DNA of 64,000 bases, taken from NCBI GenBank assembly GCA_964419495.1, contig CAYQQX010000003.1:4943-68942 (forward strand), given 5' to 3'. Made by a program: the position numbers and the translations under genes. How positions within the stretch are numbered: the stretch's first letter is position 1; each line of letters opens with the position of its first letter. Positions 18,092 through 63,194 of the stretch are shown piece by piece. Source of the DNA: an uncultured Anaerolineales bacterium (GTDB lineage: Bacteria > Chloroflexota > Anaerolineae > Anaerolineales > UBA11858). Below the pieces are notes generated by a model. It worked only from the letters and a program-made list of their open reading frames with translations. It did no database searches and had not been told where the DNA came from.

Positions 18092-18739
18092 CTATGCTGG
18101 AGCATCTGCCAGGCGGAATGCCATATCGACAGCGGAGATGGCATCCTCGGCATAGCCATCAGCACCGATCCTCTTGGAAAATTCATCCGTGACAGGTGCC
18201 CCACCGACCATAACTTTAACTTGCTGACGTAATCCAGCTTCATCTAAAGCCTGGATTAGCTTTTCTTGCTGCAGCATGGTGGTTGTCAGCAGCGCAGAAG
18301 CTCCGACGATTGTCGCACCAACTTCTTTAACTGCTTCAACAAAAGCCGATGCCGGTTGATCTACACCGATGTCTTTAACTTGGAACCCGTTCGCGGTCAA
18401 CATGGTTCCGACCAGCGTCTTGCCAATCTCGTGCAGATCACCTTGAACTGTTCCAAGAACAACAGTTGCGACAACATCGCGTTTCTGATCTCCAACAAGG
18501 GCCGGTTCGAGTATTTCCAACGCCTCTTTCATGGCATCTGCACCGATGATCAGTTCGGGCAAATAGTATTCGCCGCTGGCAAATAACTCACCCACTTTTT
18601 GGATCCCTTTTGTTAGGCCGCGGGTGATGCACTCAAGAGGATCCAAACCCTGCTCAAGAGCCTCCTTGGCGAGGGCTACTGCATCTTCCGGCTCGCCATC
18701 AATCACAGCCTGGGCCAACTTCTCAAACATATCTGACAT
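18092..18739 (-). CDS. Cobalamin-binding corrinoid protein (MtbC/MttC/MtgC-like)
   Basis: It contains the B12-binding motif DxHxxG (GDLHEIGK), then SALLTTT and VMVGGAP, with an N-terminal helical cap domain. The ATG at 18739 lies 5 nt after a perfect AGGAGG and is preferred over the track start at 18769. Confidence 0.88.
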   Translation of the reverse strand: MSDMFEKLAQAVIDGEPEDAVALAKEALEQGLDPLECITRGLTKGIQKVGELFASGEYYLPELIIGADAMKEALEILEPALVGDQKRDVVATVVLGTVQGDLHEIGKTLVGTMLTANGFQVKDIGVDQPASAFVEAVKEVGATIVGASALLTTTMLQQEKLIQALDEAGLRQQVKVMVGGAPVTDEFSKRIGADGYAEDAISAVDMAFRLADAPA

Positions 18740-18952
18740 AAAATCCTCCTTGCTAATCGATGCGAACAACTTTTGTTTTTAATCTTCGCTCTCAAATTTC
18801 CAATAAGACCTCCTCAGATATCTACACTTTTCCACTTGTGATCTTCTTTGATGCCACCACAATATTTAACTCATGTTACACACACGTAGCGAGGTTTCCC
18901 TGAGCTTGCGTAACATCAATATTTAAATTAGAAAAAGACCATAATAAAATAA

Positions 18953-26256: not shown

Positions 26257-26290
26257 CCAATTTGCTAGAATCAGATACAAAGGAGATCCG

Positions 26291-27460: not shown

Positions 27461-27586
27461 AAACAATAGCCGCAGTTCTTGGATTGCGGCTGTTCATGTT
27501 TGCTGCACCTGATTTTTTCTGGATAGCCTTTGTGATCATTAAAATTTTTGCAACGCTTCAGATATGCTATTCGATAGTTAATCAAT

Positions 27587-31618: not shown

Positions 31619-32647
31619 ATGTCGACATCAAAGGAACGAGTGTTTCAGGCTCTCAGGGGTGAAACACCCGATCAGATCCCAGCTGCACCTGCTTATCTGA
31701 TTCTCTTTCTGGCAGACTTCGAGCGCAACTATTACATCGAGCAATACCGTCAGCGGATGCGAGGACTCAGCCGCTATCCTGTCGACCACCAGGAGGATAC
31801 CCGCTATCGAGCGCAGGCTATCTATCAGGCTTACGGTATATTCAAGGATCGACCGGACTGGATGGAAATCGGGCAGGGGGCGAGCCGCTCCTGGGCTGAG
31901 AGAACTGAAATCGTTGATAAGGACGGTGTACTCCATTACGAAGACCAGCACACGGGCGCATGCCTACCCATGCACGCCTACCCGCTTCCCAGGGGTACTA
32001 TGGAGCACACATCCGAACACGATTCCACGAAGGATATCTGGGATACATCAGGAAAGATCCAGAGCGAGGAACAGGTTGATATTCGTCTGCCACTCCCTGA
32101 CCTGCATGCGATGCTGGAGCGGGGAGATTTTGACCTGCCGCGCCAGGTAATGGCCGACTATGGCGATTCAAAATTTATCACCACCATTCTTGACACACCC
32201 TTTTCTGACGCCTATGACGTTCTCGGTTTCAAGGGGCTGATGGTCATCCAACGCAGACGACCAGAACTCTTTCACTATCTCCTGGAGCGCCAACTGGAAG
32301 TCACAAAGAAAGTGATGGAGGTTTGGGCAAAAGTTGGTATTCATGGGGTCTATGTCGAGGAAGTTTTTACTGGGGCGGATATTATTTCACCCCGCGCTTA
32401 TGACGAGTTTGTCTTTGCCTACAATCAACCCTATTTTAAACATATGAGCGGCCTTGGATTACGGCCGATCCACTATATCTGCGGTGACGTGATCCCGCGC
32501 CTCGAGCGGATTGCTCAGCTCGACATCGCGGCCGTGGGAGTGGAGGAGAGCAAGAAGAAATTCGTGATCGAGCTTGAAGAAGTGGTGCGGCAGGTCGCCG
32601 GACGGGTAGCAGTCTTGGGTAATATTGATGCAGTGCGCTATGGATAA
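31619..32647 (+). CDS. URO-D / MtaA-MtbA family (methylcobamide:acceptor methyltransferase-like) protein, as terminated by TAA at 32645
   Basis: It is 342 aa and shows URO-D-family features: the N-terminal RVFQALRGETPDQIP, then ISPRAYDEFVFAYNQPYF, IHYICGD and VLGNIDAV. Confidence 0.7.
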   Translation: MSTSKERVFQALRGETPDQIPAAPAYLILFLADFERNYYIEQYRQRMRGLSRYPVDHQEDTRYRAQAIYQAYGIFKDRPDWMEIGQGASRSWAERTEIVDKDGVLHYEDQHTGACLPMHAYPLPRGTMEHTSEHDSTKDIWDTSGKIQSEEQVDIRLPLPDLHAMLERGDFDLPRQVMADYGDSKFITTILDTPFSDAYDVLGFKGLMVIQRRRPELFHYLLERQLEVTKKVMEVWAKVGIHGVYVEEVFTGADIISPRAYDEFVFAYNQPYFKHMSGLGLRPIHYICGDVIPRLERIAQLDIAAVGVEESKKKFVIELEEVVRQVAGRVAVLGNIDAVRYG

Positions 32648-35447: not shown

Positions 35448-35472
35448 TCTTCTATTCAAGAGAGACATATCT

Positions 35473-36936: not shown

Positions 36937-36976
36937 CCACTTCAAAATGAAAATAACAGGATTTGAAGGGACCTAA

Positions 36977-38446: not shown

Positions 38447-38495
38447 GTCAGCTTTCTTCATGTGTAGCATATTCTTTGAAACAAGAGAGGAATCC

Positions 38496-39962: not shown

Positions 39963-40121
39963 CTCAGTATATTCTTTTTGAGAACATAGAAAAATACCGT
40001 CTAACAACCGCATGTAATGGGGCTGGCCGATGGCCGACCACTGATGCAAGGCGCTAGGTTTCGAGAAAGTGCGATGGTTGAGAATGAGCCATCATCAGCA
40101 TGATGAAAAAGGAAAAATAAA

Positions 40122-48466: not shown

Positions 48467-50947
48467 TTAACTTCGCACCCTCTCGTTTTTGGGATCATAA
48501 AGCGGGCGCAACGATGCCTTGGCTGGATAGCGTTCACCGGCGATATCGATTTCATAAGTGCCGCTGTTAATGAATTCATTTGTGGCGCCGCCTTCATGAT
48601 GAACAAACCCCATCCCCATGGCACCGCCCAGGGTAAAGCCATAGGAGCCGGTTTGCAGGTATCCAACGATCTCTCCACTGCGGTAGATGATTTCATTACC
48701 ATAAAGCAGCGGCTCCGGGTCATCGAGCAAGAACAAAACCATGCGATATTTCAGCTGCCCGCTCTCTTTATGGCGTAGGAGCGCATCCCTGCCAATAAAT
48801 CCCCCTGGCTTGTCAAATTTAACTGCCCAACCTAAACCAGCCTCCAGGGGTGTATCTTCGCTATCCATATCATGCCCGTATTCGCGGTAGGCCTTCTCGA
48901 TCCTGAGGGAATTGAGTGCCTGGAAACCGGCATGCCTCAACCCCAGATCCTGACCTGCTTCGACAACAGCTTCATACACATGGGCTGAGAATTCAGCCGG
49001 CACGTAGAACTCAAAGCCTAATTCGCCCTCAAAGGTGACGCGCATGACTTGCACCATGGCATAACCGATATCGATATTTTGAGCCGTCATATAGGGAAAA
49101 GCTTCTTTGGAGACATCTGCTGATGTCAGTCGGCTGACAAGCTGGCGCGACTTTGGGCCCTGCATATTCATCAGTGTATAACCCGAGGTTACATCAGTAA
49201 CCAAGGCGTGGGCATCCTTGGGGATATGCTTATCTAGCCACACCAGGTCATGGCCGTAGAAATCGCCAGCACTGACAATGAAGTATTTGTCCTCTGCCAG
49301 GCGAGTGACGGTCAGGTCTGCTTCCATACCGCCGCGCTCATTCAACCATTGTGTATAAACGACCTTTCCCACAGGAACTGCGACATCGTTAGCGCAGATA
49401 TTATTGAGCACTTTTTCGGCATCGCGCCCCTGAACCAGGAACTTGGACATCGACGTGACATCCATGAGGATGACATCTTCTCGGCAGGCCCTGTGTTCAT
49501 CAGCGTGGTACTCAAACCAATTTTGGCGACCCCATGAATATTCTTCGATTTTGGCTTCAATTCCTGGGGGTGCGTACCAGTCGGGAATCTCCCAGCCCAT
49601 ACCATTGACGAAGAAAGCTCCCGCTTCGGCCAGTTTGTCGTGGATAGCCGTTCGGCGCACGTTCCGTGCGGTCTCGTTGGCCGTATTGGGATAGATGAGT
49701 TTGTATTGTAGACCTAAGGTTTCTACTGTGCGATCCGTCAGGAATTTCTGCGTTCCCTGGAAAGGGAAACAGCGGGCGATATCGATGTCTAGAGGATCGA
49801 CCGGGCAATAGCCATCCACAATCCATTGGGCCATGATTTTGCCTACCCCACCCCCCTCAAGAATGCCCAAAGAGTTCAACCCCGCCGCAACGTAGAAATT
49901 TTTCAACTCTGGCGCTTCCCCCATCAGTGGGCCACCGTCGGGGGTGAAGCTCTCCGGACCACAGAAGAATTTATGAATGCCAGCATCTTTGAGTATTGGT
50001 ACACGCTCCATGGCAATCTCAACATAAGGCATCATGCGGTCCCAATCGGGTTTGATTTCTCCAAATGTAAAATTCTTTGGGATGCCATCCATGCCCCAGG
50101 GAGCAGCCACAGGCTCGAAAAAGCCAACCAACAGACCCCCCACTTCCTCTCTAAAATAAGAGTAGCGGCCAAAATCTTCAATAATCGGCAAATCTGGACG
50201 AACCCCTTCTATCGGTTCTGTAAGCAAATAATAGTGCTCGGCTGCCTGCAATGGCACATTGACCCCGGCCATCTTCCCTAACTCACGACCCCACATCCCG
50301 GCACAATTGACCACAAACTCGGCCTCTATTTCGCCCTTATTGGTGACAACGCCTGTAACTCGTCCATTCGCTTTATTAATTCCAATGACCTCAGTTTCTT
50401 CGAGGATCTTGACGCCGCCCATCTTTGCACCTTTTGCAAGGGCCATCGTAAAGTCAACCGGGTTGGCGCGCCCATCTTCCGGCGTGAAAAATCCTGCGAG
50501 CACATCATTGGTATCGGCCAGCGGCCACATCTCTTTGACCTCTTTTGGTGAGATTTCTTGATAATTGATCCCGTGTTTTCGTGCCGCAACCGCCATCCGG
50601 CGCCTTTCTTCCAGCCAATCAGGCGTGCAGGCTAGCTGCAAATATCCAATATCTTTAAACCCTGTGGATTGGCCGGTTTCCGCCTCAAGGCTTTTAATCA
50701 ATTCCCGTGTATAGGTCACCATCTCGACGTACTGCTCATCTCCGCTGGGTGTTACAACTAAGCCAGCCGCGTGCCAGGTCGTCCCTGAGGTGAGTTCTTT
50801 ACGCTCTAAGAGTAATACATCTTTCCACCCAAGTTTTGTAAGATGGTATGCGACACTGCAGCCAATGACACCACCTCCGATGATCACGACTTGTGCATGA
50901 GAAGGTAAATCGCTTATAGAATTTGCTTGTGGCTGATTATTTGCCAT
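48467..50947 (-). CDS. Dimethylglycine oxidase/dehydrogenase-like flavoprotein (FAD + GcvT domains)
   Basis: It is 826 aa and contains VVIIGGGVIGCSVAYHL, SGTTWHAAGL and the C-terminal block TFEGELGFEFYVP. It is a paralogue of 57165..59627. Confidence 0.85.
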   Translation of the reverse strand: MANNQPQANSISDLPSHAQVVIIGGGVIGCSVAYHLTKLGWKDVLLLERKELTSGTTWHAAGLVVTPSGDEQYVEMVTYTRELIKSLEAETGQSTGFKDIGYLQLACTPDWLEERRRMAVAARKHGINYQEISPKEVKEMWPLADTNDVLAGFFTPEDGRANPVDFTMALAKGAKMGGVKILEETEVIGINKANGRVTGVVTNKGEIEAEFVVNCAGMWGRELGKMAGVNVPLQAAEHYYLLTEPIEGVRPDLPIIEDFGRYSYFREEVGGLLVGFFEPVAAPWGMDGIPKNFTFGEIKPDWDRMMPYVEIAMERVPILKDAGIHKFFCGPESFTPDGGPLMGEAPELKNFYVAAGLNSLGILEGGGVGKIMAQWIVDGYCPVDPLDIDIARCFPFQGTQKFLTDRTVETLGLQYKLIYPNTANETARNVRRTAIHDKLAEAGAFFVNGMGWEIPDWYAPPGIEAKIEEYSWGRQNWFEYHADEHRACREDVILMDVTSMSKFLVQGRDAEKVLNNICANDVAVPVGKVVYTQWLNERGGMEADLTVTRLAEDKYFIVSAGDFYGHDLVWLDKHIPKDAHALVTDVTSGYTLMNMQGPKSRQLVSRLTSADVSKEAFPYMTAQNIDIGYAMVQVMRVTFEGELGFEFYVPAEFSAHVYEAVVEAGQDLGLRHAGFQALNSLRIEKAYREYGHDMDSEDTPLEAGLGWAVKFDKPGGFIGRDALLRHKESGQLKYRMVLFLLDDPEPLLYGNEIIYRSGEIVGYLQTGSYGFTLGGAMGMGFVHHEGGATNEFINSGTYEIDIAGERYPAKASLRPLYDPKNERVRS

Positions 50948-51094
50948 GTGTGCCTCCTAAAATTGCGTACTCATCGATGCAAGAGATAACTACAAAAACA
51001 GATTGTGGGATTCGCAATTGGAAGCAGTATACCATAGACATATACCGATTATGCATTAATTCGCAGATATTTTTACCATTTTGTTATATATTTC

Positions 51095-51123
51095 TTGATT
51101 TTTCTTCACAATTGTGATATAGT
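51095..51123 (+). promoter_or_regulatory. Sigma70-like promoter of the Lrp gene, with an embedded palindromic operator candidate
   Basis: The -35 TTGATT (51095-51100) is followed by a 17-nt spacer and then the -10 TATAGT (51118-51123), which is preceded by TGa (extended -10). The perfect 12-bp palindrome TCACAATTGTGA (51106-51117) lies in the spacer. Confidence 0.5.
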
Positions 51124-51153
51124 GCCACGAAATAGTGCAGAATCGAGGGTAAT

Positions 51154-51660
51154 ATGCAGTATGTTGATCTAAAGGGGCAGGCAAAAATTGATGATATAGA
51201 TCTCCAAATCATCAAAATACTAAGTGAAGACGGCAGGACCCCATTTGCGCAAATTGCCAAACAACTGGGGGTATCTACAGGCATGATCCGTCAACGATAT
51301 CAACGCCTTGTTCAGGAAGGCGTTCTCCAGATTGTAGCCGTAACAAACCCCCTAGTGATGGGTTTTGCAACCATGGCTCAGATTGGTGTAAAGGCAGATG
51401 TTCATCGTTTGGAAGAAATTGCCGATGAGATTGCCCAATTTGAGGAAGTTATATATCTCGTATTAGTCACCGGCAGCTATGATCTTCATGTTGAAGTTGT
51501 CTGTAGAGACAAGACCCACCTACTCAACTTCCTTTCAAAGAAACTTCACGCCGTTGAAGGCGTCAAAGAAGCGGAAACTTTCATGTATCTACGTATTGCC
51601 AAAGAGAACTATGGTTGGGCGGGCATTACAGAAGTAAAACATCCTTATGGAGGTGAATAA
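51154..51660 (+). CDS. Lrp/AsnC family transcriptional regulator
   Basis: It is 168 aa with the HTH region DLQIIKILSEDGRTPFAQIAKQLGVSTGMIRQRYQRL followed by an AsnC-type domain. Confidence 0.85.
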   Translation: MQYVDLKGQAKIDDIDLQIIKILSEDGRTPFAQIAKQLGVSTGMIRQRYQRLVQEGVLQIVAVTNPLVMGFATMAQIGVKADVHRLEEIADEIAQFEEVIYLVLVTGSYDLHVEVVCRDKTHLLNFLSKKLHAVEGVKEAETFMYLRIAKENYGWAGITEVKHPYGGE

Positions 51661-51748
51661 TCCTTCAAATCCGCGAACGAAAAACCATTTATTTGGACAC
51701 AAAATATCTATCGAAAAAAATGGAAAATGAAAAAGGAGAGCGATTTCC

Positions 51749-52738
51749 ATGCCAATCCCAAATGAGATTCTTTACCTGACCGAAGAAGATGTCCAGCAAA
51801 CCCTTTCAGTGGCCGAAGCAGTCGATTTAGCAGAGAAAGGCATTAAAGAAGATGCGGTCGGAAATGTCGAGGGCGACAAGTTCTATATGAATGTCAATGA
51901 TGACGGTTTCATCAAACCCTTTTCAGGCTACATAGCGGGGGAAGAGTATGCTTATGTTAAATCGTTCAGTTACTTCCCTGACAATCCAAAGAAATATAAC
52001 CGGGCAACTACGTCTTCACAAGTTATCCTGATTGATTATGAAACCGGTCTTCCAGCGTGCTTCATGGGCGCCGATTGGGTGACGGGACTAAAGACCGCAT
52101 CTTCGACAGCCGTGACGACAGCCTACTTAGCACGACCCGAGTCTGATACGGTGACAATCTTCGGAGCTGGCACATTGGGACGGCTTCACCTCCAGGCGCT
52201 TGCTGAACGCTTTAAGCTCAAGCAAGCGTTTTTTATAGATATTATTCCTGAAGTAGCTCAATCCTGCGCGACAGATCTTGCTGCAGAATTAGGATTTTCT
52301 GTTGAAGCAGTATCTCTAGATGATCGGGAAGGTGCTGTTAGAAAATCGGATATTGTTTTTACGGTAACCACGGGAAGTCAAGAACTGGTTTACCTGGATT
52401 GGCTGAAACCGGGAACTTTTGTGGCGCGCCTGGGATCTTATCAAGAAGTCGCCCACAACGTGATCACCGGAGCCGACAAAGTGGTCCTGGATCGATGGAA
52501 ATATGTCAGCCCCAGGATTCCCGAAGTGATCCAATTGATCAAGGAAGGTAAATTCAGCCAGGAAAGCGTGTACGCCGAATGGCCCGATATTGTCGCAGAG
52601 AAAGTACCTGGACGCGAATCCCCAGATGAGATCATCGTTTTTATTGCGCTAGGAATCTGGGGCGAATATGCCGCCATATTACCCGAGGTTTTCCGTAAAG
52701 CAAAAGCTATGGGCCTGGGACGCGGACTGCCATTTTGA
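51749..52738 (+). CDS. Ornithine cyclodeaminase / mu-crystallin family NAD(P)-dependent enzyme
   Basis: It is 329 aa. TGLKTASSTAVTTAYLA and IFGAGTLGRLHLQAL (Rossmann) match the typical OCD_Mu_crystallin layout. Confidence 0.75.
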   Translation: MPIPNEILYLTEEDVQQTLSVAEAVDLAEKGIKEDAVGNVEGDKFYMNVNDDGFIKPFSGYIAGEEYAYVKSFSYFPDNPKKYNRATTSSQVILIDYETGLPACFMGADWVTGLKTASSTAVTTAYLARPESDTVTIFGAGTLGRLHLQALAERFKLKQAFFIDIIPEVAQSCATDLAAELGFSVEAVSLDDREGAVRKSDIVFTVTTGSQELVYLDWLKPGTFVARLGSYQEVAHNVITGADKVVLDRWKYVSPRIPEVIQLIKEGKFSQESVYAEWPDIVAEKVPGRESPDEIIVFIALGIWGEYAAILPEVFRKAKAMGLGRGLPF

Positions 52739-52866
52739 TTCTGAAAAAGGTAATCGTCATGCGCAGATCGAACAAAAGTAGCAAATAACTTCTATTCGGA
52801 AACCAAGAATAAAGGAAAAATTTCTTGGTTTCCTGGCTTCCAAATTAAATTAGTGAGAGGTATTGT

Positions 52867-54204
52867 ATGAGCAAAGATAAGCAAACGCTAACCGCTGAAG
52901 AAATCGTTCAACTGAGCAAAGAGTACACTTTCTTCTCATGGGCGGTGCAGTCTCAGGTCAACCCCATCCCAGTCACAAAATCCGAGGGCGTGTATTTTTG
53001 GGATGCCGATGGCAAGCGTTACCTGGACTTTTCTTCCCAATTAATGAACCAGAATATAGGCAATCAGCACCCCAAGGTGATCAAAGCCATCCAAGAACAG
53101 GCAGAAGAGTTGTGCTTTGTCCATCCCGGAAATGCCACCGAAGCGCGCGCCAACCTGGGCAAAAAGCTGTCCGAAGTCACCCCGGGAAAATTAAAGAAGA
53201 GCTTCTTTGCTCTGGGTGGTGCTGAAGCTAATGAAAATGCCATCAAGATCGCCCGCTTCTACACCGGGCGCCACAAGATCATGGCGCGCTATCGTTCCTA
53301 TCACGGCGCCACGCATGGAGCCGTAGCCTTGACCGGCGACTACCGCCGTAATGCCGTTGAACCGACGATGCCAGGGACGGTCCATTTCCTTGATCCGTAT
53401 TGTTATCGATGTCCTTTTGGGCAGAAGGTCGAATCCTGCAAACGAGAATGTATTTCCCATGTCGATGAGATCATCCAGTATGAGGGTCCCGACAAGATCG
53501 CTGCGATCATCATGGAGGGCGTCACCGGCTCCAATGGCCTGATCGTACCACCCGATGATTATTGGCCTGCGGTGCGCGAACTCTGCGATAAATACGGCAT
53601 CCTGCTGATTTCCGACGAAGTGATGAGCGGCTGGGGCCGCACAGGGAAATGGTTCGCCGTGGACAACTGGGACGTGGAGCCCGACATCATCACAACTGCT
53701 AAGGGGATCACATCCGGATATGTACCATTAGGGGCTGTGATCGTTTCAGAAGAGATCGCCAATCATTTTGAAGACGAGTATCTTTATGCAGGTTTGACTT
53801 ACAGCGGGCATGCGCTGGCCTGTGCAGCTGCGTTGGCGACCATCGATGTCTATGCCGATGATGGTCTGATTGACAATGCAGCAAATTTGGGGAACTATCT
53901 GGGGAAAGCACTGGAAGATATCAAGGAGCGCCATCCCTCCGTGGGTGATGTGCGCTATATCGGTCTATTCTCAACAATTGAACTCGTTGAAGATCGCAAG
54001 ACGAAAAAACCATTCTCAGCTGCTGTGATGGCTGATGTAAAAAATGCGTTGTTGGATAGTGGTTTGTTCACCTTCATTATGGTAAAGGACATCGGGACGA
54101 TGGTATTCATTGTCCCGCCGCTTTGTATTACAAAAGAACAGCTAGATGAAGGTCTGGCTCTGGTTGAACAGGCTTTAGAAGTTTCTGATCGAAAGGTGAA
54201 ATAA
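52867..54204 (+). CDS. Class-III omega-aminotransferase (beta-alanine/taurine:pyruvate aminotransferase-like)
   Basis: It is 445 aa and contains [62 protein letters not shown] and [10 protein letters not shown] (PLP-lysine). Confidence 0.75.
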
Positions 54205-54205
54205 T

Positions 54206-55675
54206 ATGTCGAAAATCTTGAATTACATCAACAATGAATGGGTAGAACCGAAAGTTAGCGAGTACGCCGAGGTGATCAATCCGGCCACAGGAGAGGTGAT
54301 CGCCAAAACGCCCTTGTGTGGTAAAAGTGAAGTGGATGCAGCCACAATGGCAGCCTCAGAGGCATTTCCAGCGTGGCGTGAGACCCCGGTAAACGATCGC
54401 ATCAAGTATCTGTTTAAATTGCGGGATTTACTCATCGCCAACCATGATGAGATCGGCCGCATTATCACCGAGGAATGCGGCAAGACCTTCGGTGAGGCCA
54501 AAGCCGAAATGGTGCGCGCCATCGAGAATGTGGAAGTTGCCTGCGGCATGCCAATGATGATGAAGGGTGAAATCGCAGAGGATATCGCCCCAGGCATCGA
54601 TGAGATCATGCTGCGCCAACCTTTGGGCGTGTGTACCACGATCGCGCCATTCAACTTCCCGGGCATGATCACCTTTTGGTACCTACCCTATGCGCTGGCA
54701 ACGGGTAATACCTATATCGTCAAACCCTCAGAACGCGTCTCAATGACTATGCAGTTCATCTTCGAATTGATCGAGCAGGTTGGTTTCCCTCCGGGCGTGG
54801 TCAATATGGTGCACGGCTCGAAAGATGCCGTCAATGCCATTCTTGATCACCCTGATATTCGCGCCATCACATTTGTCGGCTCGACAAATGTGGCCAAATA
54901 CGTCTACCGCCGCGCAGCCGAGAACGGCAAACGCGTCCAGGCGCAAGGTGGGGCGAAAAACCCGGTTATCATCATGCCCGATGCCGAAATGGATATGGCA
55001 ACCCAAATTGTTGCCGATTCAGCCTTTGGGTGCGCTGGTCAGCGCTGCTTGGCAGTATCCCTGGCCGTGACGGTTGGAGAAGCACGCAATACCTTCAACG
55101 AAATGATTTGCGACGCGGCATCTAACCGTGTTGTCGGTAACGGCCTCGATGCAGATGTGCAAATGGGTCCCGTGATTAACCAGGCCAGCAAAGCGAACAT
55201 CGAAAAACTTATCGGACTGGGAACCACGGAAGGGGCCACCGCGTTGGTAGATGGACGCGGCACAACTATCGAAGGTTATGAAGGGGGTACGTTTGTCCGT
55301 CCAACAGTTTTATCTGAAGTGCAACCCAACAGTGAAATTTGGAAAACCGAGATCTTTGGTCCGGTGTTGAGCATGATGCATGTCAAAACCATCGAGGAAG
55401 CCATCGAATTGGCCAATAGTCATATTTATGGCAACCAGGCCAGTCTGTTTACTTCCAGTGGGGCCGCGGCGCGCAAGTTCCGTTATGAAGTGGATGCAGG
55501 CAACGTGGGCATTAACATCGGCGTCGCCGCCCCCATGGCATTCTTCCCCTTTAGCGGATGGAAAGACAGCTTCTTTGGAACTCTCCACGGGCAAGGACAA
55601 CATGCCGTCGAGTTTTTCACTCAAACCAAGGTCGTCATTGAGCGTTGGCCCAAGGAATGGTCACGAAAATTCTAG
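54206..55675 (+). CDS. mmsA: Methylmalonate/malonate-semialdehyde dehydrogenase (CoA-acylating ALDH)
   Basis: It is 489 aa and contains the ALDH catalytic blocks [10 protein letters not shown] and EIFGPVL. The C-terminal [13 protein letters not shown] tail is typical of the MmsA/IolA subgroup. Confidence 0.75.
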
Positions 55676-55683
55676 GAGAATAA

Positions 55684-57144
55684 ATGTACTCTGAGACCCC
55701 GGATATCACCTCGATCTCATCCCATCACAAAATCCAGATTCTGAGAGATTCGGAACTGGAGACATTGAAGAACGGCACCATGCAGCTCTTGTCGGAAACG
55801 GGTGTCTATTTCCCCAGCCAAATAGCCTTGTCGATCTTCGCCGATCACGGGGCCAACGTGGATTGGGATACGAAGATCGTCCGCATTCAGCCCGATTTAG
55901 TCAAAAAGGCCATGGCGACCGCCCCACGCAGCTTTGTGTTGGGCGGCCGAGAAGAACGTTTCGACCTGATACTCGATGGTCGTAACTCTTACCTTTGCAC
56001 CGATGGATGCGGGGTCCATGTCATTGATCCAGAAACCCGAGAAAAACGTGCTTCCCGAAAATCGGATGTGGCCATGATGGCGCGCATCAGTGACGCCATT
56101 CCTATGCTCAGCTTCTTCTGGCCATTGGTGAGTGCCCAGGATTTCGGCAAAACTGCACCACTGCACGAATGCCATGCGGGCCTGACCAACACCTTGAAAC
56201 ACGTACGCGGGGGAACAACCGTTCACCCTGAACTGGCCCCCGCGATTGTAGAAATGGCCACCGTTGTCTCGGGAAGTGACGCGGAGAGACGCCGGCGACC
56301 ACCAATTTGTGCCAATATTTGCACAATAGCACCTATGGCTCAAGATGGCCACGGCATCGAAACCGCGTTGATTTATGCAGCCGCAGGAATTCCTGTTAGT
56401 TTTATGGCTATGCCCAACATGGGCTCAACTGCGCCAGCTTCAGTACTTGGTGCGCTGGTTATGGGTGATGCAGAGTCAGTCAGCGCAATGGTGCTGATGC
56501 AGTTGGCGAACCCTGGTGCACCTGTCTTCCATTCGATTATCACCTCGCTGATGGATCCGCGTACCGGTGGATACATCGGGGATATCCCCTTGCCAGTCTC
56601 GTTGATCGCTGTGCAGTTAGCCCATGCCTGGAACGTTCCCAGCTTAGGCGGCGGGTCGTTCAGCAGTGACGCACCCGATGTCGGCTGGCAGTCGGCGTTC
56701 GAAGCAGGTTTTGGCTCAGCAAAGATACCCCTGGCTGGTGGTGAGATTTGCGGCTATATGGGATTGCTGAATTCTTCGATGACTATCTACCCTGAACAGA
56801 TCATTCTTGATGCGGAGATCGCCAGGAATGTTTATGATACATACAAAGAATTCGAATTCAAAGATTTCGATGCTTCATTGGATGTGATCAAAGCTGTAGG
56901 CCCAGGCGGACATTATTTGAGAGAAAAACACACTCGGGTGTACATGCGAGATTTTCACTACTCACCTATCTTCCGCCAATTGGATGCCGAAGGCCACCTG
57001 CGCGAGCCGCGCGATGTAGCATACGATGAATTCAAAAGAATCTATGAAACTCATCAGCCTGAACCGCTGCCTGATGAGGCCATAAAAGAAATGGACAACA
57101 TCCTGGCAGCGGCAGACAGAACGGCAGCAAAATTAGCGGACTAA
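55684..57144 (+). CDS. MttB-superfamily methyltransferase (non-Pyl)
   Basis: It is 486 aa and belongs to the same clade as 11144 and 24611 (SFFWPLVSAQDFG, LHECHAGLTNTLKHVRGGTTV, PPICANICTIAPM, DPRTGGY). Confidence 0.88.
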   Translation: MYSETPDITSISSHHKIQILRDSELETLKNGTMQLLSETGVYFPSQIALSIFADHGANVDWDTKIVRIQPDLVKKAMATAPRSFVLGGREERFDLILDGRNSYLCTDGCGVHVIDPETREKRASRKSDVAMMARISDAIPMLSFFWPLVSAQDFGKTAPLHECHAGLTNTLKHVRGGTTVHPELAPAIVEMATVVSGSDAERRRRPPICANICTIAPMAQDGHGIETALIYAAAGIPVSFMAMPNMGSTAPASVLGALVMGDAESVSAMVLMQLANPGAPVFHSIITSLMDPRTGGYIGDIPLPVSLIAVQLAHAWNVPSLGGGSFSSDAPDVGWQSAFEAGFGSAKIPLAGGEICGYMGLLNSSMTIYPEQIILDAEIARNVYDTYKEFEFKDFDASLDVIKAVGPGGHYLREKHTRVYMRDFHYSPIFRQLDAEGHLREPRDVAYDEFKRIYETHQPEPLPDEAIKEMDNILAAADRTAAKLAD

Positions 57145-57164
57145 CAAAAAAGGTAGGGCAGAAC

Positions 57165-59627
57165 GTGGAGAAACCGAATAGCAAATTACCACCACAAGCT
57201 CGAGTCGTGATTATTGGCGGCGGTGTCATCGGCTGCAGTACCGCCTATCATCTGGCAAAACTGGGCTGGAAAGACATCGTGCTCCTGGAGCGCGCCCAGC
57301 TTACCGCCGGCACCACCTGGCATGCCGCTGGGCTAATTGAGGCGGGTGGGTTCATGGACGCCACCTCAATCGAGATGGCTGATTACACTTTGAAGCTTTA
57401 CAGTTCCCTGGAAGCCGAAACCGGATTGGCAACCGGCTACAAAGATGTGGGCATGATTACTCTGGCATCTACTCCAGAACGATTGGAGGAAATGCGACGA
57501 ATTTCTGCAAAAAACCGCTTCCATAATGTTGAGGTGGAGGAAATCTCCCCGAAGAAGATCAAGGAAATCTGGCCGCTGGCGTATACCGACGACCTCCTGG
57601 CCGGGTTTTATTCACCTGGGGATGGGCGCGTCAATCCCATCGATGTCACCATGGCCTTAGCCAAAGGCGCTCGCATGAGCGGCGTCCAAATCTTCGAAGA
57701 GACGGCTGTCACTGGTTTCAGCATCAAAAACCAGATGGTAACCGGAGTGATTACCGAAAAGGGCGAGATCCAGGCCGAGTACGTAGTCAACTGCGCCGGC
57801 ATGTGGGCCGGAGAGATAGGGAAGCTGGCCGGCGTCAATGTGCCGTTGCAACCCATGGAGCACTACTACCTGATCACAGAGCCAATTGACGGCATTGACC
57901 CCAAATTGCCCGTTTTGGTGGATTCCGATAAGTACGCTTATTATCGAGAAGAAGTGGGGGGTGTGTTGTTCGGCCTGTTCGAGCCTGAGGCTGCTCCCTG
58001 GGCCATGGACGGCATCCCCAAGAACTTCACCTTTGGGGAAATCAACCCCGATTGGGATCGCATGATGCCTTACATCGAGGAGGCCATGAAACGCATCCCG
58101 GTGCTTGAAAATGCAGGTATCCACAAATTCTTCTGCGGCCCGGAGAGCTTCACGCCAGACAATGGCTTCATGATGGGGTTGGCACCCGAGTTGGATAACT
58201 TCTATGTGGCTGCGGGTTTCAACTCCCTGGGAATTCTCATGGGCGGAGGCGCTGGCAAAGTGATGGCTCAATGGATCGTCGATGGCGTCTCGGATGTCGA
58301 CATCACCGAGATCGACATTGCCCGCATGCTGCCATTCCAGAATACCCCCAAATATCGGCAAGACAGGGGTGTCGAGATACTCGGGTACATGTTCAATATC
58401 GGTTATCCCAATAAACAGTTAAAAACCGCCCGCAATGTTCGCCAATCTCCTTTCCATCAAAGATTGGCCGAAGCAGGGGCGTATTTTGGCGTCTATGCCG
58501 GCATGGAATATCCGGATTGGTTTGCACCCAAAGGCGTTGACCCCAAAGTCGAATACTCCTGGGGGCGGCAGAACTGGTTCGAATACAGCGCCGCAGAGCA
58601 TCGCGCCACGCGCGAAAACGTCACCATGATGGATTATTCAGTCATGGGCAAAATCCTGGTCCAGGGTCGCGACGCCGAAAAATATCTCAACCGCATCTGC
58701 GCCAATAACGTCGCCGTGCCTGTCGGGCGTTGTGTCTATACTCAATGGTGCAACGAAACCGGCACCATCGAAGCCGATCTAACAGTTACTCGCCTGGCAG
58801 AAGACCTGTTCCTCATTCTCAGCGGAGATGCCACCATCCCCGCCGTGATGGCCTGGCTGCGAAGACACATTCCCTCCGATGCCCATGCTATCATAACGAA
58901 TATCTCTTCAGCATACAGTGTGCTCAACATCCAGGGTCCGAAATCTCGTGAATTTTTGAGCACCGTTACCCATGCCGATATGTCCAATGAAGCCTTTCCC
59001 TTCCTTACTTCCCAAGAGATCGACATTGGCTATGCCCTGGTAAGAGCCATCCGCATCACGTACGTCGGAGAATTGGGCTGGGAGTTGTATATCCCATCCG
59101 AATTCTCTTTGCACGTCTTCGATACCCTTGTAGAAGCAGGAAAAGATTTTGAACTGAAACACATCGGGCTGCAGGCCTTGAACACGCTGCGCCTAGAAAA
59201 AGCCTATCGCGACTATGGTGGCGATATCGACAACACCGATACGCCCCTGGAAGTTGGCTTGGGCTTCTTTGTTGATTTCGACAAACCTAGCGGATTCATC
59301 GGTCGAGATGCGTTACTAAAACTTAAAGAATCCGGCTACCGCTATCGCATGCCGCAGTTCCTGCTTGAGGATCCTGAACCGATGATGTATTACGGCGAGA
59401 TCATCTACCGGGATGGGGTACCTGTGGGGAATATCATGTCCGGAGGCTTCGGGCACACCTTAGGCGCGTCTGTCGCTGTTGGACCGGTGGAAGGCGAAGA
59501 TGAACCTGTGACGGTCGATTTCATCCAGAGCGGCGCCTATGAAATTGACATTGCGGGTGTGCGCTACCCGGCCAAAGCATCCCTAAGGCCCATGTATGAC
59601 CCCAAGCTCCTTCGAGTACGATGTTAA
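57165..59627 (+). CDS. Dimethylglycine oxidase/dehydrogenase-like flavoprotein (FAD + GcvT domains)
   Basis: It is 820 aa with a GTG start 20 nt after the MttB stop. It contains VVIIGGGVIGCSTAYHL, AGTTWHAAGL and TYVGELGWELYIP. Confidence 0.85.
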   Translation: MEKPNSKLPPQARVVIIGGGVIGCSTAYHLAKLGWKDIVLLERAQLTAGTTWHAAGLIEAGGFMDATSIEMADYTLKLYSSLEAETGLATGYKDVGMITLASTPERLEEMRRISAKNRFHNVEVEEISPKKIKEIWPLAYTDDLLAGFYSPGDGRVNPIDVTMALAKGARMSGVQIFEETAVTGFSIKNQMVTGVITEKGEIQAEYVVNCAGMWAGEIGKLAGVNVPLQPMEHYYLITEPIDGIDPKLPVLVDSDKYAYYREEVGGVLFGLFEPEAAPWAMDGIPKNFTFGEINPDWDRMMPYIEEAMKRIPVLENAGIHKFFCGPESFTPDNGFMMGLAPELDNFYVAAGFNSLGILMGGGAGKVMAQWIVDGVSDVDITEIDIARMLPFQNTPKYRQDRGVEILGYMFNIGYPNKQLKTARNVRQSPFHQRLAEAGAYFGVYAGMEYPDWFAPKGVDPKVEYSWGRQNWFEYSAAEHRATRENVTMMDYSVMGKILVQGRDAEKYLNRICANNVAVPVGRCVYTQWCNETGTIEADLTVTRLAEDLFLILSGDATIPAVMAWLRRHIPSDAHAIITNISSAYSVLNIQGPKSREFLSTVTHADMSNEAFPFLTSQEIDIGYALVRAIRITYVGELGWELYIPSEFSLHVFDTLVEAGKDFELKHIGLQALNTLRLEKAYRDYGGDIDNTDTPLEVGLGFFVDFDKPSGFIGRDALLKLKESGYRYRMPQFLLEDPEPMMYYGEIIYRDGVPVGNIMSGGFGHTLGASVAVGPVEGEDEPVTVDFIQSGAYEIDIAGVRYPAKASLRPMYDPKLLRVRC

Positions 59628-59654
59628 TCAAGCTCATCTCTAAATATTCTTTTT

Positions 59655-59749
59655 GTCACTCTGAGGGAGCGTAGGAAGCGAAGCGGTTGAAGCGACCGAA
59701 GAGTCTCTGATACCATGTGTTCCGGATCCTTCGCTGCGCTCAGGATGAC
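59655..59749. repeat. Imperfect inverted repeat element (GTCAYYCTGAG...GAAGGA arms)
   Basis: The left arm is gtcactctgagggagcgtaggaagc. The reverse complement of the right arm is gtcatcctgagcgcagcgaaggatc. The centre contains reiterated gaagcga units. Confidence 0.5.
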
Positions 59750-59796
59750 ATTACTAAGATAGCTTCTAATCGGATTTAAAAGAAGGAGTGATACCG

Positions 59797-60273
59797 ATGT
59801 CAAACACAGAAAAGAAACACCTCATTGATCAGTTAACTGAAACTCACCTGGCTACCCGGGCAACATTAGATGATGTCGATCTGGATATGCTTGTTCATAA
59901 AGAAACTGGTTGGCGAGTCAGGGACATCGTAGGGCACATAGCGACCTGGGATTGGGAAATTGCGAAATCCCTTCGTGCTTATCAGGCTGGATCAGAATAC
60001 CTTACTCCCAATCTTGATGAGGAAGAGGTTGAATTTAACCAAAATGCGGTTTTAGAGCAACAAAAGCTGACTGATCAACAAATTCTAAATGAATTTGAAA
60101 CCGCGTGTGATGAATTCAGGAAAGCAATTCAGGAAATTCCAGATGATCAATTTCCAGGCGATTTGCTCTATCCTTGGGGAGATGAGCGTGGGGATATCGC
60201 TACGATGGTTGAGTACATGATTGAACACAGTGATGAGCATCGAGAAGAAATCATCGCTGCAATTCAAGAATAG
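59797..60273 (+). CDS. DinB-superfamily four-helix-bundle protein
   Basis: It is about 158 aa from the ATG at 59797 (AAGGAG 8 nt upstream). RDIVGHIATWDWE and the C-terminal EHSDEHREEI give the histidine pattern of DinB-like proteins. Confidence 0.5.
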   Translation: MSNTEKKHLIDQLTETHLATRATLDDVDLDMLVHKETGWRVRDIVGHIATWDWEIAKSLRAYQAGSEYLTPNLDEEEVEFNQNAVLEQQKLTDQQILNEFETACDEFRKAIQEIPDDQFPGDLLYPWGDERGDIATMVEYMIEHSDEHREEIIAAIQE

Positions 60274-60312
60274 AAGATGTTTGAAACCACCTTCTTGTAA
60301 GGATTAACATCT

Positions 60313-60924
60313 ATGGTTGAAAATTTACGAGAACTCGGGGTCGTAAAATTAGTTCAGGTGCAGCCTAACGGCCTGATAATCGAGAAACCCTCCGGTTACT
60401 TTTATGACGTCACCAGACGCGTTGAAGTAGAGCGCTTGATTATTAACGCATTGGGCATCGAAGCCATCACCCCAGATGGGAAGCATGTGCTCGATATCCA
60501 CCACATTAACCACCCTGACAAAGCCTATGATGACGATGATCTGGTTTCCATCGGGTTTACATCGCACTACCAAGCCATAAGGGCACGCTTTGGGGAGCAC
60601 ATGGTCGACGGCAGCGCAGGAGAGAATATCATCATCGATTATGCTGATGAAATTTGGGAGCAAGACCTTGGAAGGCAAATCGCCATCGAAAGCGCGGAGA
60701 CCGGCCATAGAGCGCTGCTGGATTTGGTAAGTTTCGCACCACCGTGCGAGGAGTTCAGCCACTTCGTTGCCCAAAGTCAGCATGAGCGCCTCCCTGCAGC
60801 GGAGTTGAAATCTATCCTTCAGTTCCTGAATAAAGGTCGGCGTGGTTTCTTGCTGGTGCTGAGTGAAGGGCAAAAAGAAGCAACCGTTCAATCAGGGGAT
60901 CGGGTGTTTGTGGTGAAGGAATAA
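60313..60924 (+). CDS. MOSC-like beta-barrel domain protein
   Basis: It is 203 aa. GENIIIDY, PPCEEF, RRGFLLVLSEG and VQSGDRVFV follow the MOSC pattern (GEN...PC...GF..V..G.V..GD.V). Confidence 0.45.
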   Translation: MVENLRELGVVKLVQVQPNGLIIEKPSGYFYDVTRRVEVERLIINALGIEAITPDGKHVLDIHHINHPDKAYDDDDLVSIGFTSHYQAIRARFGEHMVDGSAGENIIIDYADEIWEQDLGRQIAIESAETGHRALLDLVSFAPPCEEFSHFVAQSQHERLPAAELKSILQFLNKGRRGFLLVLSEGQKEATVQSGDRVFVVKE

Positions 60925-60931
60925 GATAAGC

Positions 60932-62662
60932 ATGAAAGCAACCCTGGTTCTAAAAAACGGTGCTGTATACACCGTTGACACAGGTCGTAGTTGGGCCCAG
61001 GCTGTAGCGATTGCTGATCGAAAAATCATCTTTGTCGGTTCCGATACTGACGTCGAAGCCTACATTGATACCGATACAACTGTGATCGATCTGCAGGGCA
61101 AGATGGTGCTGCCTGCCCTCGTGGACAGCCACATGCACCCTGCCCAAAGCGCCCATATATACCAGTGTGGATTGGGACTCTTCGACGTGTCTGGCGAGGA
61201 TCAAATCCAGGCATATCTCAATGCCATACGCGCCTTTGTAGAAAAGCATCCGGCTGCGGCGTGGATTATCGGCGGCGGGTATTCCCGTTCTGCCTTTGAT
61301 GAAGTGGGTCCGCGCAAAGAATGGCTGGATGAGATCGAATCGTCTCGCCCTATTGCGATCACTTCCATCGATGGACACTCGATGTGGGTTAATTCCAAGG
61401 CCCTGGAGCTGGCGGATATCACCAAGGACACACCCCAGCCCGAAGAAGGGGTAATCAAGCATGACCCCAAAACGGGCCAGCCATCGGGATTGCTCCAGGA
61501 GCCGGGGGCGATGAACCTGGTCGCACAGCATATTCCAAATCCACCGAAAGAGCAAATCAAGCAGTCGTTGATTTGGCTTCAGGAGTGGCTAAACGCCAAA
61601 GGTATCACCACAGTGCACGAAGCTATGCTAGGGCTCGATGAGCGCCACATCTACGAAGCTTACGATGAACTTGCTCAAGAAGGAAAATTAACTTTGCGTT
61701 ACCGAGCCTCATGGAAAATGTCACCCGGCGGAGATATCACTGAACAGATCGATCAGGGAAAGGTTTTGGCAAAGAAGTTCACACATCCCCATTTCAAAGC
61801 CCATTCTTTCAAATTTTTTGCTGATCATGTCATCGAGGAAGAGACAGGTTTTCTACTGGAGCCATATACGCACCGGGACGACAATTGGTATGGCATCAAA
61901 GTCTGGGACGACGAAACATTCCAGAAGGCCTTTACCCAAATCGATTCAGCAGGATACCAGATCCACGTCCACGTGATTGGCGATGCAGCCGCACGATATA
62001 CCCTGGATGCGCTTGAATTCGCCCAGGATATGAACGGGAAACGAGACGCGCGGCATTCATTCGCCCATCTTCAGCTGGCAAAACAGGAAGATGTTTTGCG
62101 CATGGGTCAATTGGGTCTCAGCGTCCATACCAGCCCCTACTGGACGATCATAGATGATTATTTTTGGAAGCTGAGCATTCCCTATCTAGGTCGAGAGCGC
62201 GCTTTTTTCCAACAGTATCCTTTTAAGAGTATGTTCAAGGCAGGGGTCAATGTAACCGTCGCCAGCGATTTCTTCGTCACTGAGCCAGACCCAATGGCTG
62301 CCATTTACTGCGGCTTGACCCGCCGGATGTCCCCGACTACTTTCGAGACGGGGTATGGGGGAAAACCAAATTACCAATTGATATCAGATCCAGATGCAGA
62401 ACTAGAACCAGGCGATTTGGGCGTGCTACCACCTATTGAAGAATGCGCCGATCTCGAAGATATGATCGCAGCCTCGACACTCAACGGTGCATATGCCAAC
62501 TTTCTCGATGATGATCTTGGTTCAATCGATGTGGGAAAACTGGCAGATCTGGTCATCCTGGATCAGAATCTTTTTGCCATCGATATCGAACAGATCCCTG
62601 AAACCCAGATTGTGATGACCCTTTTTGAAGGGGAATGTGTTTATTCAGCAAAAGATTCTTAG
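60932..62662 (+). CDS. Amidohydrolase_3 (YtcJ-like) metal-dependent hydrolase
   Basis: It is 576 aa and contains VLPALVDSHMHP, IHVHVIGDAAAR and a C-terminal GKLADLVILDQNLF. Confidence 0.8.
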   Translation: MKATLVLKNGAVYTVDTGRSWAQAVAIADRKIIFVGSDTDVEAYIDTDTTVIDLQGKMVLPALVDSHMHPAQSAHIYQCGLGLFDVSGEDQIQAYLNAIRAFVEKHPAAAWIIGGGYSRSAFDEVGPRKEWLDEIESSRPIAITSIDGHSMWVNSKALELADITKDTPQPEEGVIKHDPKTGQPSGLLQEPGAMNLVAQHIPNPPKEQIKQSLIWLQEWLNAKGITTVHEAMLGLDERHIYEAYDELAQEGKLTLRYRASWKMSPGGDITEQIDQGKVLAKKFTHPHFKAHSFKFFADHVIEEETGFLLEPYTHRDDNWYGIKVWDDETFQKAFTQIDSAGYQIHVHVIGDAAARYTLDALEFAQDMNGKRDARHSFAHLQLAKQEDVLRMGQLGLSVHTSPYWTIIDDYFWKLSIPYLGRERAFFQQYPFKSMFKAGVNVTVASDFFVTEPDPMAAIYCGLTRRMSPTTFETGYGGKPNYQLISDPDAELEPGDLGVLPPIEECADLEDMIAASTLNGAYANFLDDDLGSIDVGKLADLVILDQNLFAIDIEQIPETQIVMTLFEGECVYSAKDS

Positions 62663-62671
62663 GAGCATATT

Positions 62672-63013
62672 ATGAAACTGCCGGTTATCAAACAAGCCAT
62701 AGAACAAACTCTGGAAGATACGGGCGTGCATCCCCAGGCTCTGGAAGGCACTGCCCCCTCAACAGCCTGGATGGAAGTTTTTTATGACGATGAAGGGCGA
62801 GACGCGGGAATTTGGGAATGTTCTCCCGGGAAATATCGTTTGGAACGCGAGAGCGATGAACTATGCTATATCCTCCAAGGACATTGGAAGCTAATTGGGG
62901 ATAATGGCGATGAATATGAGGTCAAAGCGGGGGATGTGCTCTATTTGCGAAAGGGCTGGTGCGGCACCAGCCATGTGATCGAAACCATTCGCAAGGTCTA
63001 TATGGCTTGCTAA
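62672..63013 (+). CDS. Small cupin (DUF861/cupin_3-like)
   Basis: It is 113 aa. GIWECSPGKY...DELCYILQGHWKL...VKAGDVLYLRKGW is the single-domain cupin pattern. Confidence 0.6.
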   Translation: MKLPVIKQAIEQTLEDTGVHPQALEGTAPSTAWMEVFYDDEGRDAGIWECSPGKYRLERESDELCYILQGHWKLIGDNGDEYEVKAGDVLYLRKGWCGTSHVIETIRKVYMAC

Positions 63014-63022
63014 AAAGGTGTG

Positions 63023-63085
63023 AGACTTCCGAAGTTTTATAAGTATCTTGTTGGCCCCACAGGCATTTTAAGACTTCGGAAGTCT
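63023..63085. terminator. Long-loop hairpin between convergent genes (possible terminator)
   Basis: The 13-bp inverted repeat is agacttccgaagt (63023-63035) / acttcggaagtct (63073-63085). On the - strand it is followed by a T5 run (63013-63017). Confidence 0.35.
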
Positions 63086-63194
63086 AAAATGATACTGATT
63101 TCCAGGGGAATCTTATTATCTGGTGTCTTGGTCCAGCACTTTCAGGAATCTGATCAGTTTTCTGCCGTTGTCTACCGAGACGATTTTATTAACC

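Follow-up and report, generated by a model that had tools for sequence, protein, structure and literature searches.

The MttB superfamily is very large, and six substrates are known for it (PMC12155760). The MtgB, MtpB, MtcB, MtyB and MthB systems, which act on glycine betaine, proline betaine, carnitine, gamma-butyrobetaine and phosphocholine, are non-pyrrolysine members of this superfamily (PF06253). In MtgB, glycine betaine is bound by residues Y97, R312, H348 and F356, with R312 acting as the carboxylate ligand and reported to be conserved in all characterised members with acidic substrates (PMC13080624). Beta-alanine betaine, a compound made in open-ocean communities (PMC9321204), is not among the six known substrates (PMC12155760; PMC13080624). 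Here, we describe an operon encoding a divergent MttB-superfamily protein in a 64,000-nucleotide stretch of contig CAYQQX010000003.1, below called the window. Taken together, the genes of the window form a methylated-amine island of an uncultured marine Anaerolineales bacterium, and we propose that the operon is one substrate-specific module of this large catabolic island. Judging from gene context, it is possible, if not quite probable, that the operon acts on substrates of the beta-alanine betaine type. An original prediction, made from the DNA letters, had arrived at the same compound and held that no MttB-based route for it had been described, which agrees with the literature searched (PMC12155760; PMC13080624). 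Literature searches for beta-alanine betaine together with MttB, and for methylated taurines, Chloroflexi with MttB and homocholine, returned no relevant paper, and a paper on salt-marsh Anaerolineae mentions neither betaines nor trimethylamine.

The operon consists of six co-directional open reading frames (ORFs) on the plus strand, all of which were confirmed both in position and in the families first assigned to them. It opens with an Lrp/AsnC-family regulator (51154..51660; PF01037, PF13404), followed by an OCD/mu-crystallin-family NAD(P) enzyme (51749..52738; PF02423, 7e-36), a class-III aminotransferase of the Toa-like omega type (52867..54204; PF00202, 1.5e-101), a CoA-acylating malonate/methylmalonate-semialdehyde dehydrogenase (MMSDH, 54206..55675; TIGR01722), a non-pyrrolysine MttB-superfamily methyltransferase (55684..57144; PF06253) and a flavoprotein of the dimethylglycine dehydrogenase (DMGDH)/SARDH type with a folate-binding GcvT domain (57165..59627; DAO+FAO_M+GCV_T+GCV_T_C). 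Intergenic gaps from the Lrp gene through the DMGDH-like gene measure 88, 128, 1, 8 and 20 bp, the aminotransferase, MMSDH, MttB and DMGDH-like genes being near-contiguous with spacers of 1, 8 and 20 bp. We infer co-transcription and Lrp control of the operon. Family memberships, active-site motifs and the conserved gene order of the module can all be read directly from the sequences.

In the proposed route, MttB would first demethylate a quaternary trimethylammonio compound once, passing the methyl group on to a corrinoid protein acting in trans (18092-18769). The remaining N-methyl groups would be stripped oxidatively, as methylene-tetrahydrofolate, by the DMGDH-like enzyme 57165-59627 and probably also by its paralogue 48467-50947. 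The aminotransferase is proposed to act on beta-alanine or an analogue substituted at position 2, giving malonate (or methylmalonate) semialdehyde, from which MMSDH would yield acetyl-CoA (or propionyl-CoA) and CO2. Beta-alanine betaine would be the simplest substrate, along with the corresponding N,N-dimethyl and N-methyl compounds. It should be noted that we infer every substrate and the order of the steps in this route.

The aminotransferase and MMSDH pair represents a robust signature for the conversion of beta-alanine or 3-aminoisobutyrate via (methyl)malonate semialdehyde to acyl-CoA, and this part of the original prediction was borne out. The aminotransferase scores well above the cut-off of NCBIfam PRK06062 (567.6 vs 472 bits), and its best Protein Data Bank (PDB) match is the taurine:2-oxoglutarate aminotransferase Toa (6JIX) with 411 bits, the runner-up reaching 294 bits. 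Sequence comparison thereby groups it with Toa enzymes, in line with its earlier assignment to the beta-alanine/taurine type. The SW and RR motifs are kept in 11 orthologues, and the catalytic lysine is likewise conserved; the tryptophan and arginine of these motifs are the residues proposed to hold the acid group of taurine in 6JIX. The arginine of the Toa 'FGR' motif is replaced by lysine in the window enzyme. The aldehyde dehydrogenase encoded at 54206-55675 reaches 560 bits on TIGR01722 (cut-off 448.5), and its ten top PDB matches are all MMSDHs (420-473 bits). The arginine of a ten-residue motif and the Arg-Cys pair of the QRC motif are conserved, the general-base glutamate is missing with AQGGAKN found in its place, and both a 16-residue segment and AQGGAKN were aligned to B. 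subtilis IolA. An arginine preceding the catalytic cysteine, a second carboxylate-binding arginine and the lack of the glutamate are what we take, from work on the B. subtilis enzyme, to be the hallmarks of MMSDHs. On these sequence features, the protein is predicted to be a genuine CoA-acylating (methyl)malonate-semialdehyde dehydrogenase. As a transaminase for an amine two carbons away from the acid is combined with MMSDH, beta-alanine or 3-aminoisobutyrate is indicated rather than taurine. The wide margin by which the closest solved relative of the aminotransferase is a taurine enzyme would by itself suit a methylated taurine (N,N,N-trimethyl-, di- or monomethyltaurine) that is converted to taurine and then to sulfoacetaldehyde. 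We consider this highly improbable, because the aldehyde dehydrogenase is of the MMSDH and not the SafD type (232 bits on the SafD-type model, cut-off 700) and because Xsc, phosphotransacetylase, a sulfite exporter and sulfite dehydrogenase are all absent from Pfam scans of the large ORFs of the window.

The coupling of this pair to the MttB-DMGDH demethylation pair is tight and repeated in relatives, as had been proposed for the single locus. The best genome matches are two Black Sea metagenome-assembled genomes (MAGs; loci L001 and L002), with which the whole neighbourhood is shared at 67-94% protein identity. The gene order of the window is found in L001, L002, L019 and L020 at 78-94% protein identity and, with variations, in L014, L017, L025, L028, L050, L051 and L052. 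Ten loci with at least 6.5 kb of sequence upstream of a 55684/24611-type MttB gene were informative with regard to module content. Two unrelated MMSDH lineages, 61-94% and ~40% identical to that of the window, fill the slot between the aminotransferase and MttB, and both exceed the TIGR01722 cut-off. That the genes stay coupled even where one MMSDH lineage has taken the place of the other speaks for a common pathway with acetyl-CoA as its end product. In a neighbor-joining tree, module MttBs fall in both sister clades of this MttB type, and the arrangement therefore predates the split between them.

The flavoprotein encoded at 57165-59627 had initially been labelled 'DMGO-like', a designation that we replace since the protein is nearer to mammalian dimethylglycine dehydrogenase than to dimethylglycine oxidase (517 vs 360 bits). 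It contains the motif TTWHAAGL, which includes the histidine of the covalent-FAD motif. Both oxidative demethylations had been attributed to this single enzyme. It need not carry out both steps, as a conserved second DMGDH-like enzyme with 63% identity is encoded on the minus strand at 48467..50947, divergent from the Lrp gene. Enzymes of the 48467 type occur near the module in 8 of the 10 informative loci (absent from L025 and L051). It is more likely that this paralogue catalyses the last N-demethylation than that 57165-59627 acts alone. The same divergent minus-strand unit contains, by Pfam, a second MttB paralogue (46991-48451), 45% identical to 55684-57144, and two DAO-family FAD oxidoreductases (45630-46994 and 44234-45589). 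The 45630-type oxidase is retained near the module in L001, L002, L019 and L021, and the counterpart of MttB 46991-48451 is missing at this spot in L001. The Lrp gene sits between the two divergent enzyme units, and an Lrp orthologue with 84-90% identity occupies the same position in L001, L002 and L019.

The OCD-family protein does not reach any NCBIfam equivalog (best 128-139 bits vs cut-offs of 409-417). Its AlphaFold model has a pLDDT of 92.9, and Foldseek comparison of the model gave TM-scores of 0.91 for the delta-1-pyrroline-2-carboxylate reductase 6T3E, 0.90 for an archaeal alanine dehydrogenase, 0.88 each for SbnB and iminosuccinate reductase and at most 0.84 for cyclodeaminases. Lysine is found where the family has the 'RT' arginine, with GLKTA present in 113 of 120 orthologues, and the carboxylate triad is Lys-Lys-Lys in place of Arg-Lys-Arg. 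The protein further lacks the aspartate of the GxD..PGK motif and has LGS-YQE at that position. We reject a cyclodeaminase function on account of the absent aspartate motif and the lower structural similarity. An imine-forming, NAD(P)-dependent dehydrogenase of the imine-reductase/amino-acid-dehydrogenase type is the most likely identity of the protein. One possible role would be to regenerate the keto-acid acceptor of the transaminase and free ammonium, comparable to the alanine dehydrogenase found next to taurine:pyruvate transaminase; the other would be cleavage of an N-substituted amino acid. The two lysines K56 and K115 take the place of carboxylate-binding arginines, an exchange that is shared by both OCD clades found alongside DMGDH-like genes and that may characterise a substrate class new to the family. 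When the OCD proteins of the window and of locus L009 were used as queries, all homologues retrieved were close relatives from environmental Chloroflexota with generic names, and neither a characterised relative nor a foreign gene context came to light.

Proline betaine, pipecolate betaine or another cyclic imino-acid betaine is a further candidate substrate, given that the OCD protein is structurally most similar to a delta-1-pyrroline-2-carboxylate reductase with L-proline bound. MttB and DMGDH would then take off two N-methyl groups, the OCD enzyme would interconvert the imino acid and the delta-1-2-carboxylate imine, and the transaminase together with an aldehyde oxidiser would handle the ring-opened amino-keto acid. 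Such a scheme accounts for the invariant core of OCD, MttB, DMGDH, transaminase and aldehyde oxidiser, and the nearby DAO-family oxidases weakly resemble pipecolate oxidase. However, the aldehyde dehydrogenase is an MMSDH that scores only 345-364 bits on models for 2,5-dioxovalerate/ketoglutarate-semialdehyde dehydrogenases (cut-offs 750-770), the aminotransferase keeps the residues of a short-chain, taurine-type enzyme, and one oxidative demethylase would be needed where two are conserved. A cyclic substrate is thus quite unlikely.

MttB 55684-57144 matches PF06253 over its full length (5.3e-63, residues 15-472 of 486). It is encoded by an uninterrupted 486-codon ORF, with serine in the Pyl334 column and phenylalanine before it, which identifies it at the sequence level as a non-pyrrolysine member of the superfamily. 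Against TIGR02369, the model for trimethylamine methyltransferase MttB proper, it scores 302.5 bits and stays under the cut-off of 525. More than 2,500 database relatives were found, the nearest of which belong to Anaerolineales/Chloroflexota MAGs.

Several observations weigh against beta-alanine betaine as the substrate. Activity on this compound had been ascribed to MttB, yet nothing in the protein itself ties it to the compound: at the positions of MtgB Y97, R312, H348 and F356 it has C, L, G and S, as do its relatives at 20 further loci (every orthologue examined). It is ~27% identical to MtgB and likewise to M. barkeri MttB, and no characterised superfamily member is closer. As R312 is absent in this clade, substrate binding there is unreadable from known enzymes. 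The paralogue 24611-26077 and its orthologues have the same pocket residues in a different gene context. Across the ten informative loci, the invariant partners are the OCD gene and the 57165-type DMGDH gene (10 of 10 each) and not the aminotransferase (8 of 10; absent from L028 and L052) or MMSDH (8 of 10; absent from L050 and L052). The OCD enzyme had been given no role in the original scheme despite being the most conserved partner, and its possible function as an alanine dehydrogenase is uncertain because lysine replaces the carboxylate-binding arginine of the family. The operon encodes no betaine-type transporter (OpuAC or BCCT). Scans for promoters and terminators across 50800-63300 gave the same counts as shuffled sequence and are therefore uninformative on co-transcription. 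Finally, the additional genes found with the module in relatives, specifically those for a GntE-like transaminase, an aldehyde:ferredoxin oxidoreductase (AOR), an Opp/Dpp-type importer, a saccharopine-dehydrogenase-like protein and amine oxidases, point to a larger or di-amino substrate.

The variable presence of the aminotransferase and MMSDH bears on the question of whether the operon combines two chemically separate units. MttB and the DMGDH-like enzyme would demethylate glycine betaine or another known betaine to the free amino acid, and OCD, aminotransferase and MMSDH would separately catabolise beta-alanine or an opine-type N-(carboxyalkyl) compound. Locus L052 does contain MttB-DMGDH without aminotransferase or MMSDH, MttB, DMGDH, the SARDH-like paralogue and the DAO oxidases together make up the classical set for converting glycine betaine to glycine, and the nearest relatives of the OCD protein are imine-forming dehydrogenases such as SbnB that split N-substituted amino acids. 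Opp-type importers carry opines and peptides, which is also in keeping with this arrangement. On the other hand, MttB lacks all four glycine-betaine-binding residues of MtgB, the genes are separated by gaps of only 1-20 bp with the junction retained even where the MMSDH lineage is replaced, and OCD stays with MttB-DMGDH after loss of the aminotransferase and MMSDH. Two separate units are therefore unlikely. Overall, the pathway as first proposed is partly supported: its core, the coupling of demethylation to the aminotransferase and MMSDH, holds up, MttB lends no independent support to the proposed substrate, OCD had been left without a role and a single demethylase need not carry out both oxidative steps.

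The genes accompanying the module in relatives can also be read as part of a pathway for a larger N-methylated compound with a 3-aminopropyl unit, such as a methylated di- or polyamine, for which beta-alanine would only be an intermediate. The GntE-like transaminase would turn one amine end into an aldehyde, AOR would oxidise it to beta-alanine or a methylated form, and the Toa-like aminotransferase and MMSDH would finish the pathway, with the OCD, saccharopine-dehydrogenase-like and amine-oxidase enzymes responsible for splitting secondary amines. The GntE/HemL-like transaminase and AOR each accompany the module in 8 of the 10 informative loci, being absent from L001 and L002. L051 has a saccharopine-dehydrogenase-like gene inserted within the module, and two flavin amine oxidases and a GcvT are found near the module in L051 and L055. 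The importer located directly 5' of the OCD gene in some relatives is an ABC transporter of the Opp/Dpp type and not of a betaine type. The core parts are moreover paired, with two MttBs, two DMGDH types, two transaminases and two aldehyde oxidisers, and the window contains a sister operon (326-19458) with the AOR/GntE-like pair as well as genes for an agmatine deiminase, an N-carbamoylputrescine-amidase-type protein and two saccharopine-dehydrogenase-like proteins. Nevertheless, such a compound appears rather unlikely as the substrate: the data do not name a specific natural substrate, the argument is drawn from gene context, in the lineage of the window the GntE-like transaminase and AOR lie ~50 kb away from the operon, and SBP_bac_5 importers are not typical polyamine binders. 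A more specific version, in which the module, the relocated GntE/AOR genes and the sister operon degrade N-methylated aminopropyl polyamines, for example the partly quaternary long-chain polyamines of diatom silica, is very unlikely. In that case, MttBs would demethylate quaternary nitrogens and leave the tertiary and secondary ones to DMGDH-like and DAO enzymes, chain cleavage would fall to the OCD, saccharopine-dehydrogenase-like and amine-oxidase enzymes, and each C3 unit would pass via 3-aminopropanal, beta-alanine and malonate semialdehyde to acetyl-CoA.

In the window, both of these accessory enzymes are encoded on the minus strand, AOR at 1598-3481 (AFOR_N/AFOR_C) and the GntE/HemL-like transaminase at 3497-4813 (Aminotran_3; NF041362, 562 bits vs a cut-off of 525). 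They are 54-59% (AOR) and 72-76% (transaminase) identical to the module genes of L014, L017, L019, L025, L028 and L050-L052, and in the lineage of the window the pair has been relocated to 1598-4813. The 128-bp gap between the OCD and aminotransferase genes (52739-52866) is the exact spot of the GntE-like transaminase in most relatives, which fits loss or relocation of this gene in the lineage of the window. The HemL-like transaminases 3497-4813 and L017 5578-6888 exceed the cut-off of the guanitoxin-biosynthesis equivalog GntE (562-570 vs 525 bits); since their gene contexts are catabolic, they would probably be given the wrong name by automatic annotation.

For its methyl transfer step, the beta-alanine betaine route depends on components encoded elsewhere, and the operon is not the complete pathway that it had been taken for: the corrinoid protein and the second methyltransferase that MttB needs are not part of it. 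The window encodes a single corrinoid protein, which is MtgC-like (18092..18769, minus strand; B12-binding, B12-binding_2) and lies 33 kb from the operon. With 218 bits on NF047995 MtgC and 212 bits on TIGR02370, it scores just under or below the respective cut-offs, and it is presumed to be the methyl acceptor for the MttB paralogues. In L051, the module is headed by Lrp and a corrinoid protein 74% identical to 18092-18769. The sole candidate in the window for transfer from the methyl-corrinoid to an acceptor is a weak one, a URO-D/MtaA-CmuA-like protein (31619..32647, plus strand; PF01208) that reaches 64 bits on TIGR01463 against a cut-off of 235. A RACo/Ram-like activase was not seen among the genes of the window; near a related module, L055 encodes a RACo activase as well as a Pterin_bind methyltransferase. 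Scans of the whole window with Rfam and for tRNAs gave no matches, including none for a cobalamin riboswitch.

At least nine MttB paralogues are encoded within the 64 kb, with starts at 6195, 7639, 11144, 12657, 24611, 29944, 46991, 55684 and 63195 (spans 6195-14147, 24611-31395, 46991-48451, 55684-57144 and 63195-63986), the last of which (63195-63986) is a truncated ORF. They are 22-75% identical to each other. None of the eight full-length proteins contains the glycine-betaine motif of MtgB, and seven of the eight have leucine at the R312 position. Three DMGDH-like genes and several DAO-family oxidases are also present in the window.

Two further gene sets in the window resemble modules for other compounds. 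A long co-directional run on the minus strand (326-19458) encodes Lrp, the MtgC-like corrinoid protein, an SBP_bac_5 ABC importer, two MttBs, an agmatine-deiminase-family protein, a CN-hydrolase similar to N-carbamoylputrescine amidase, two more MttBs, a DAO, the GntE-like transaminase, AOR and a saccharopine-dehydrogenase-like protein, and looks like a sister module for a guanidino or polyamine-type methylated compound. The second set (23884-32647) comprises GntR, MttB 24611, a saccharopine-dehydrogenase-like gene, a 786-aa fusion of an APH kinase and a class-III aminotransferase, MttB 29944 and the URO-D-like gene, and is followed at 35323-41612 by three sulfatases and a cholinesterase-family carboxylesterase. 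Together they bring to mind the processing of choline esters, choline sulfate or phosphocholine; E. limosum MthB requires choline kinase (PMC12155760).

While all six genes originally assigned to the operon were recovered, the conserved unit runs past them on both sides. Downstream, a co-directional plus-strand block assigned by Pfam encodes DinB_2/MDMPI_N (59788-60273), MOSC (60313-60924), Amidohydro_3 (60932-62662) and Cupin_3 (62672-63013) proteins, with internal gaps of 39, 7 and 9 bp. This block is kept beside the operon in L001, L002, L019-L022 and L044, which represent the lineage of the window. Solved relatives of the amidohydrolase (60932-62662) are all uncharacterised. A small DinB_2/MDMPI_N-family gene recurs directly 3' of the DMGDH-like gene or directly 5' of the 46991-type MttB in the window (59788-60273) and in L009, L014, L017, L035, L037, L052 and L055, and this placement suggests that its product has an accessory function in these methyl-transfer systems that has so far gone unrecognised.

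Two divergent examples of the module were also observed. In L053 (9571-14108), part of the complete Chloroflexota genome CP070688.1, OCD and DMGDH-like genes are flanked by fragments of an aldehyde dehydrogenase (57 aa) and an MttB (116 aa), and the locus appears to be a decayed copy. In L009, on a contig labelled Candidatus Zixiibacteriota, a DMGDH-OCD-aminotransferase-MMSDH unit is divergent from Lrp-DinB-MttB. Since the nearest relatives of the L009 OCD protein are from Chloroflexota, this contig may be mis-binned or horizontally acquired, and the case for conservation of the module across phyla is weak.

Should beta-alanine betaine indeed be the substrate, it would be the seventh of the MttB superfamily, and the module would lead all the way from a quaternary amine to acetyl-CoA, with ammonium and three C1 units as the other products. 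This would extend the known fates of marine nitrogen-containing osmolytes, with a demethylating route keeping nitrogen and carbon out of the formation of trimethylamine and methane. As each of the at least nine divergent MttB paralogues has different downstream enzymes beside it, the window further offers predictions from gene context that can be tested for one enzyme after another.

All parts of the module are of known enzyme kinds, and it is their combination and the probable substrate that are undescribed. In common with MtgB-type systems, the module is expected to remove one methyl from a trimethylammonio group, and the island encodes an MtgC-like corrinoid protein. In contrast to MtgB, the window MttB, at ~27% identity, differs in all four substrate residues, R312 included, and a corrinoid protein, second methyltransferase and activase are not encoded in the operon. 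Characterised MttB systems end after one demethylation, whereas the window module is joined to oxidative demethylases and to catabolism of the carbon skeleton. With the pathway from glycine betaine via dimethylglycine and sarcosine to glycine, it has DAO and GcvT flavoproteins in common, mammalian DMGDH being the most similar, and its two DMGDH-like paralogues could work in series, like DMGDH followed by SARDH. Unlike in that pathway, the flavoproteins are linked to an aminotransferase and MMSDH, which would have no role after glycine, and the MttB is not MtgB-like. BauA/BauC of Pseudomonas aeruginosa follow the same two-step logic, from an amine via malonate semialdehyde to acetyl-CoA, and Toa (PDB 6JIX) belongs to the same Toa/PRK06062 subfamily as the window aminotransferase; here, by contrast, the pair has an OCD-family gene on one side and N-demethylases on the other. 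An aerobic route from homocholine via beta-alanine betaine to trimethylamine has reportedly been found in soil isolates. It shares the putative substrate, but there C-N cleavage frees trimethylamine, whereas the route proposed here would strip the methyl groups singly and keep the nitrogen until transamination.

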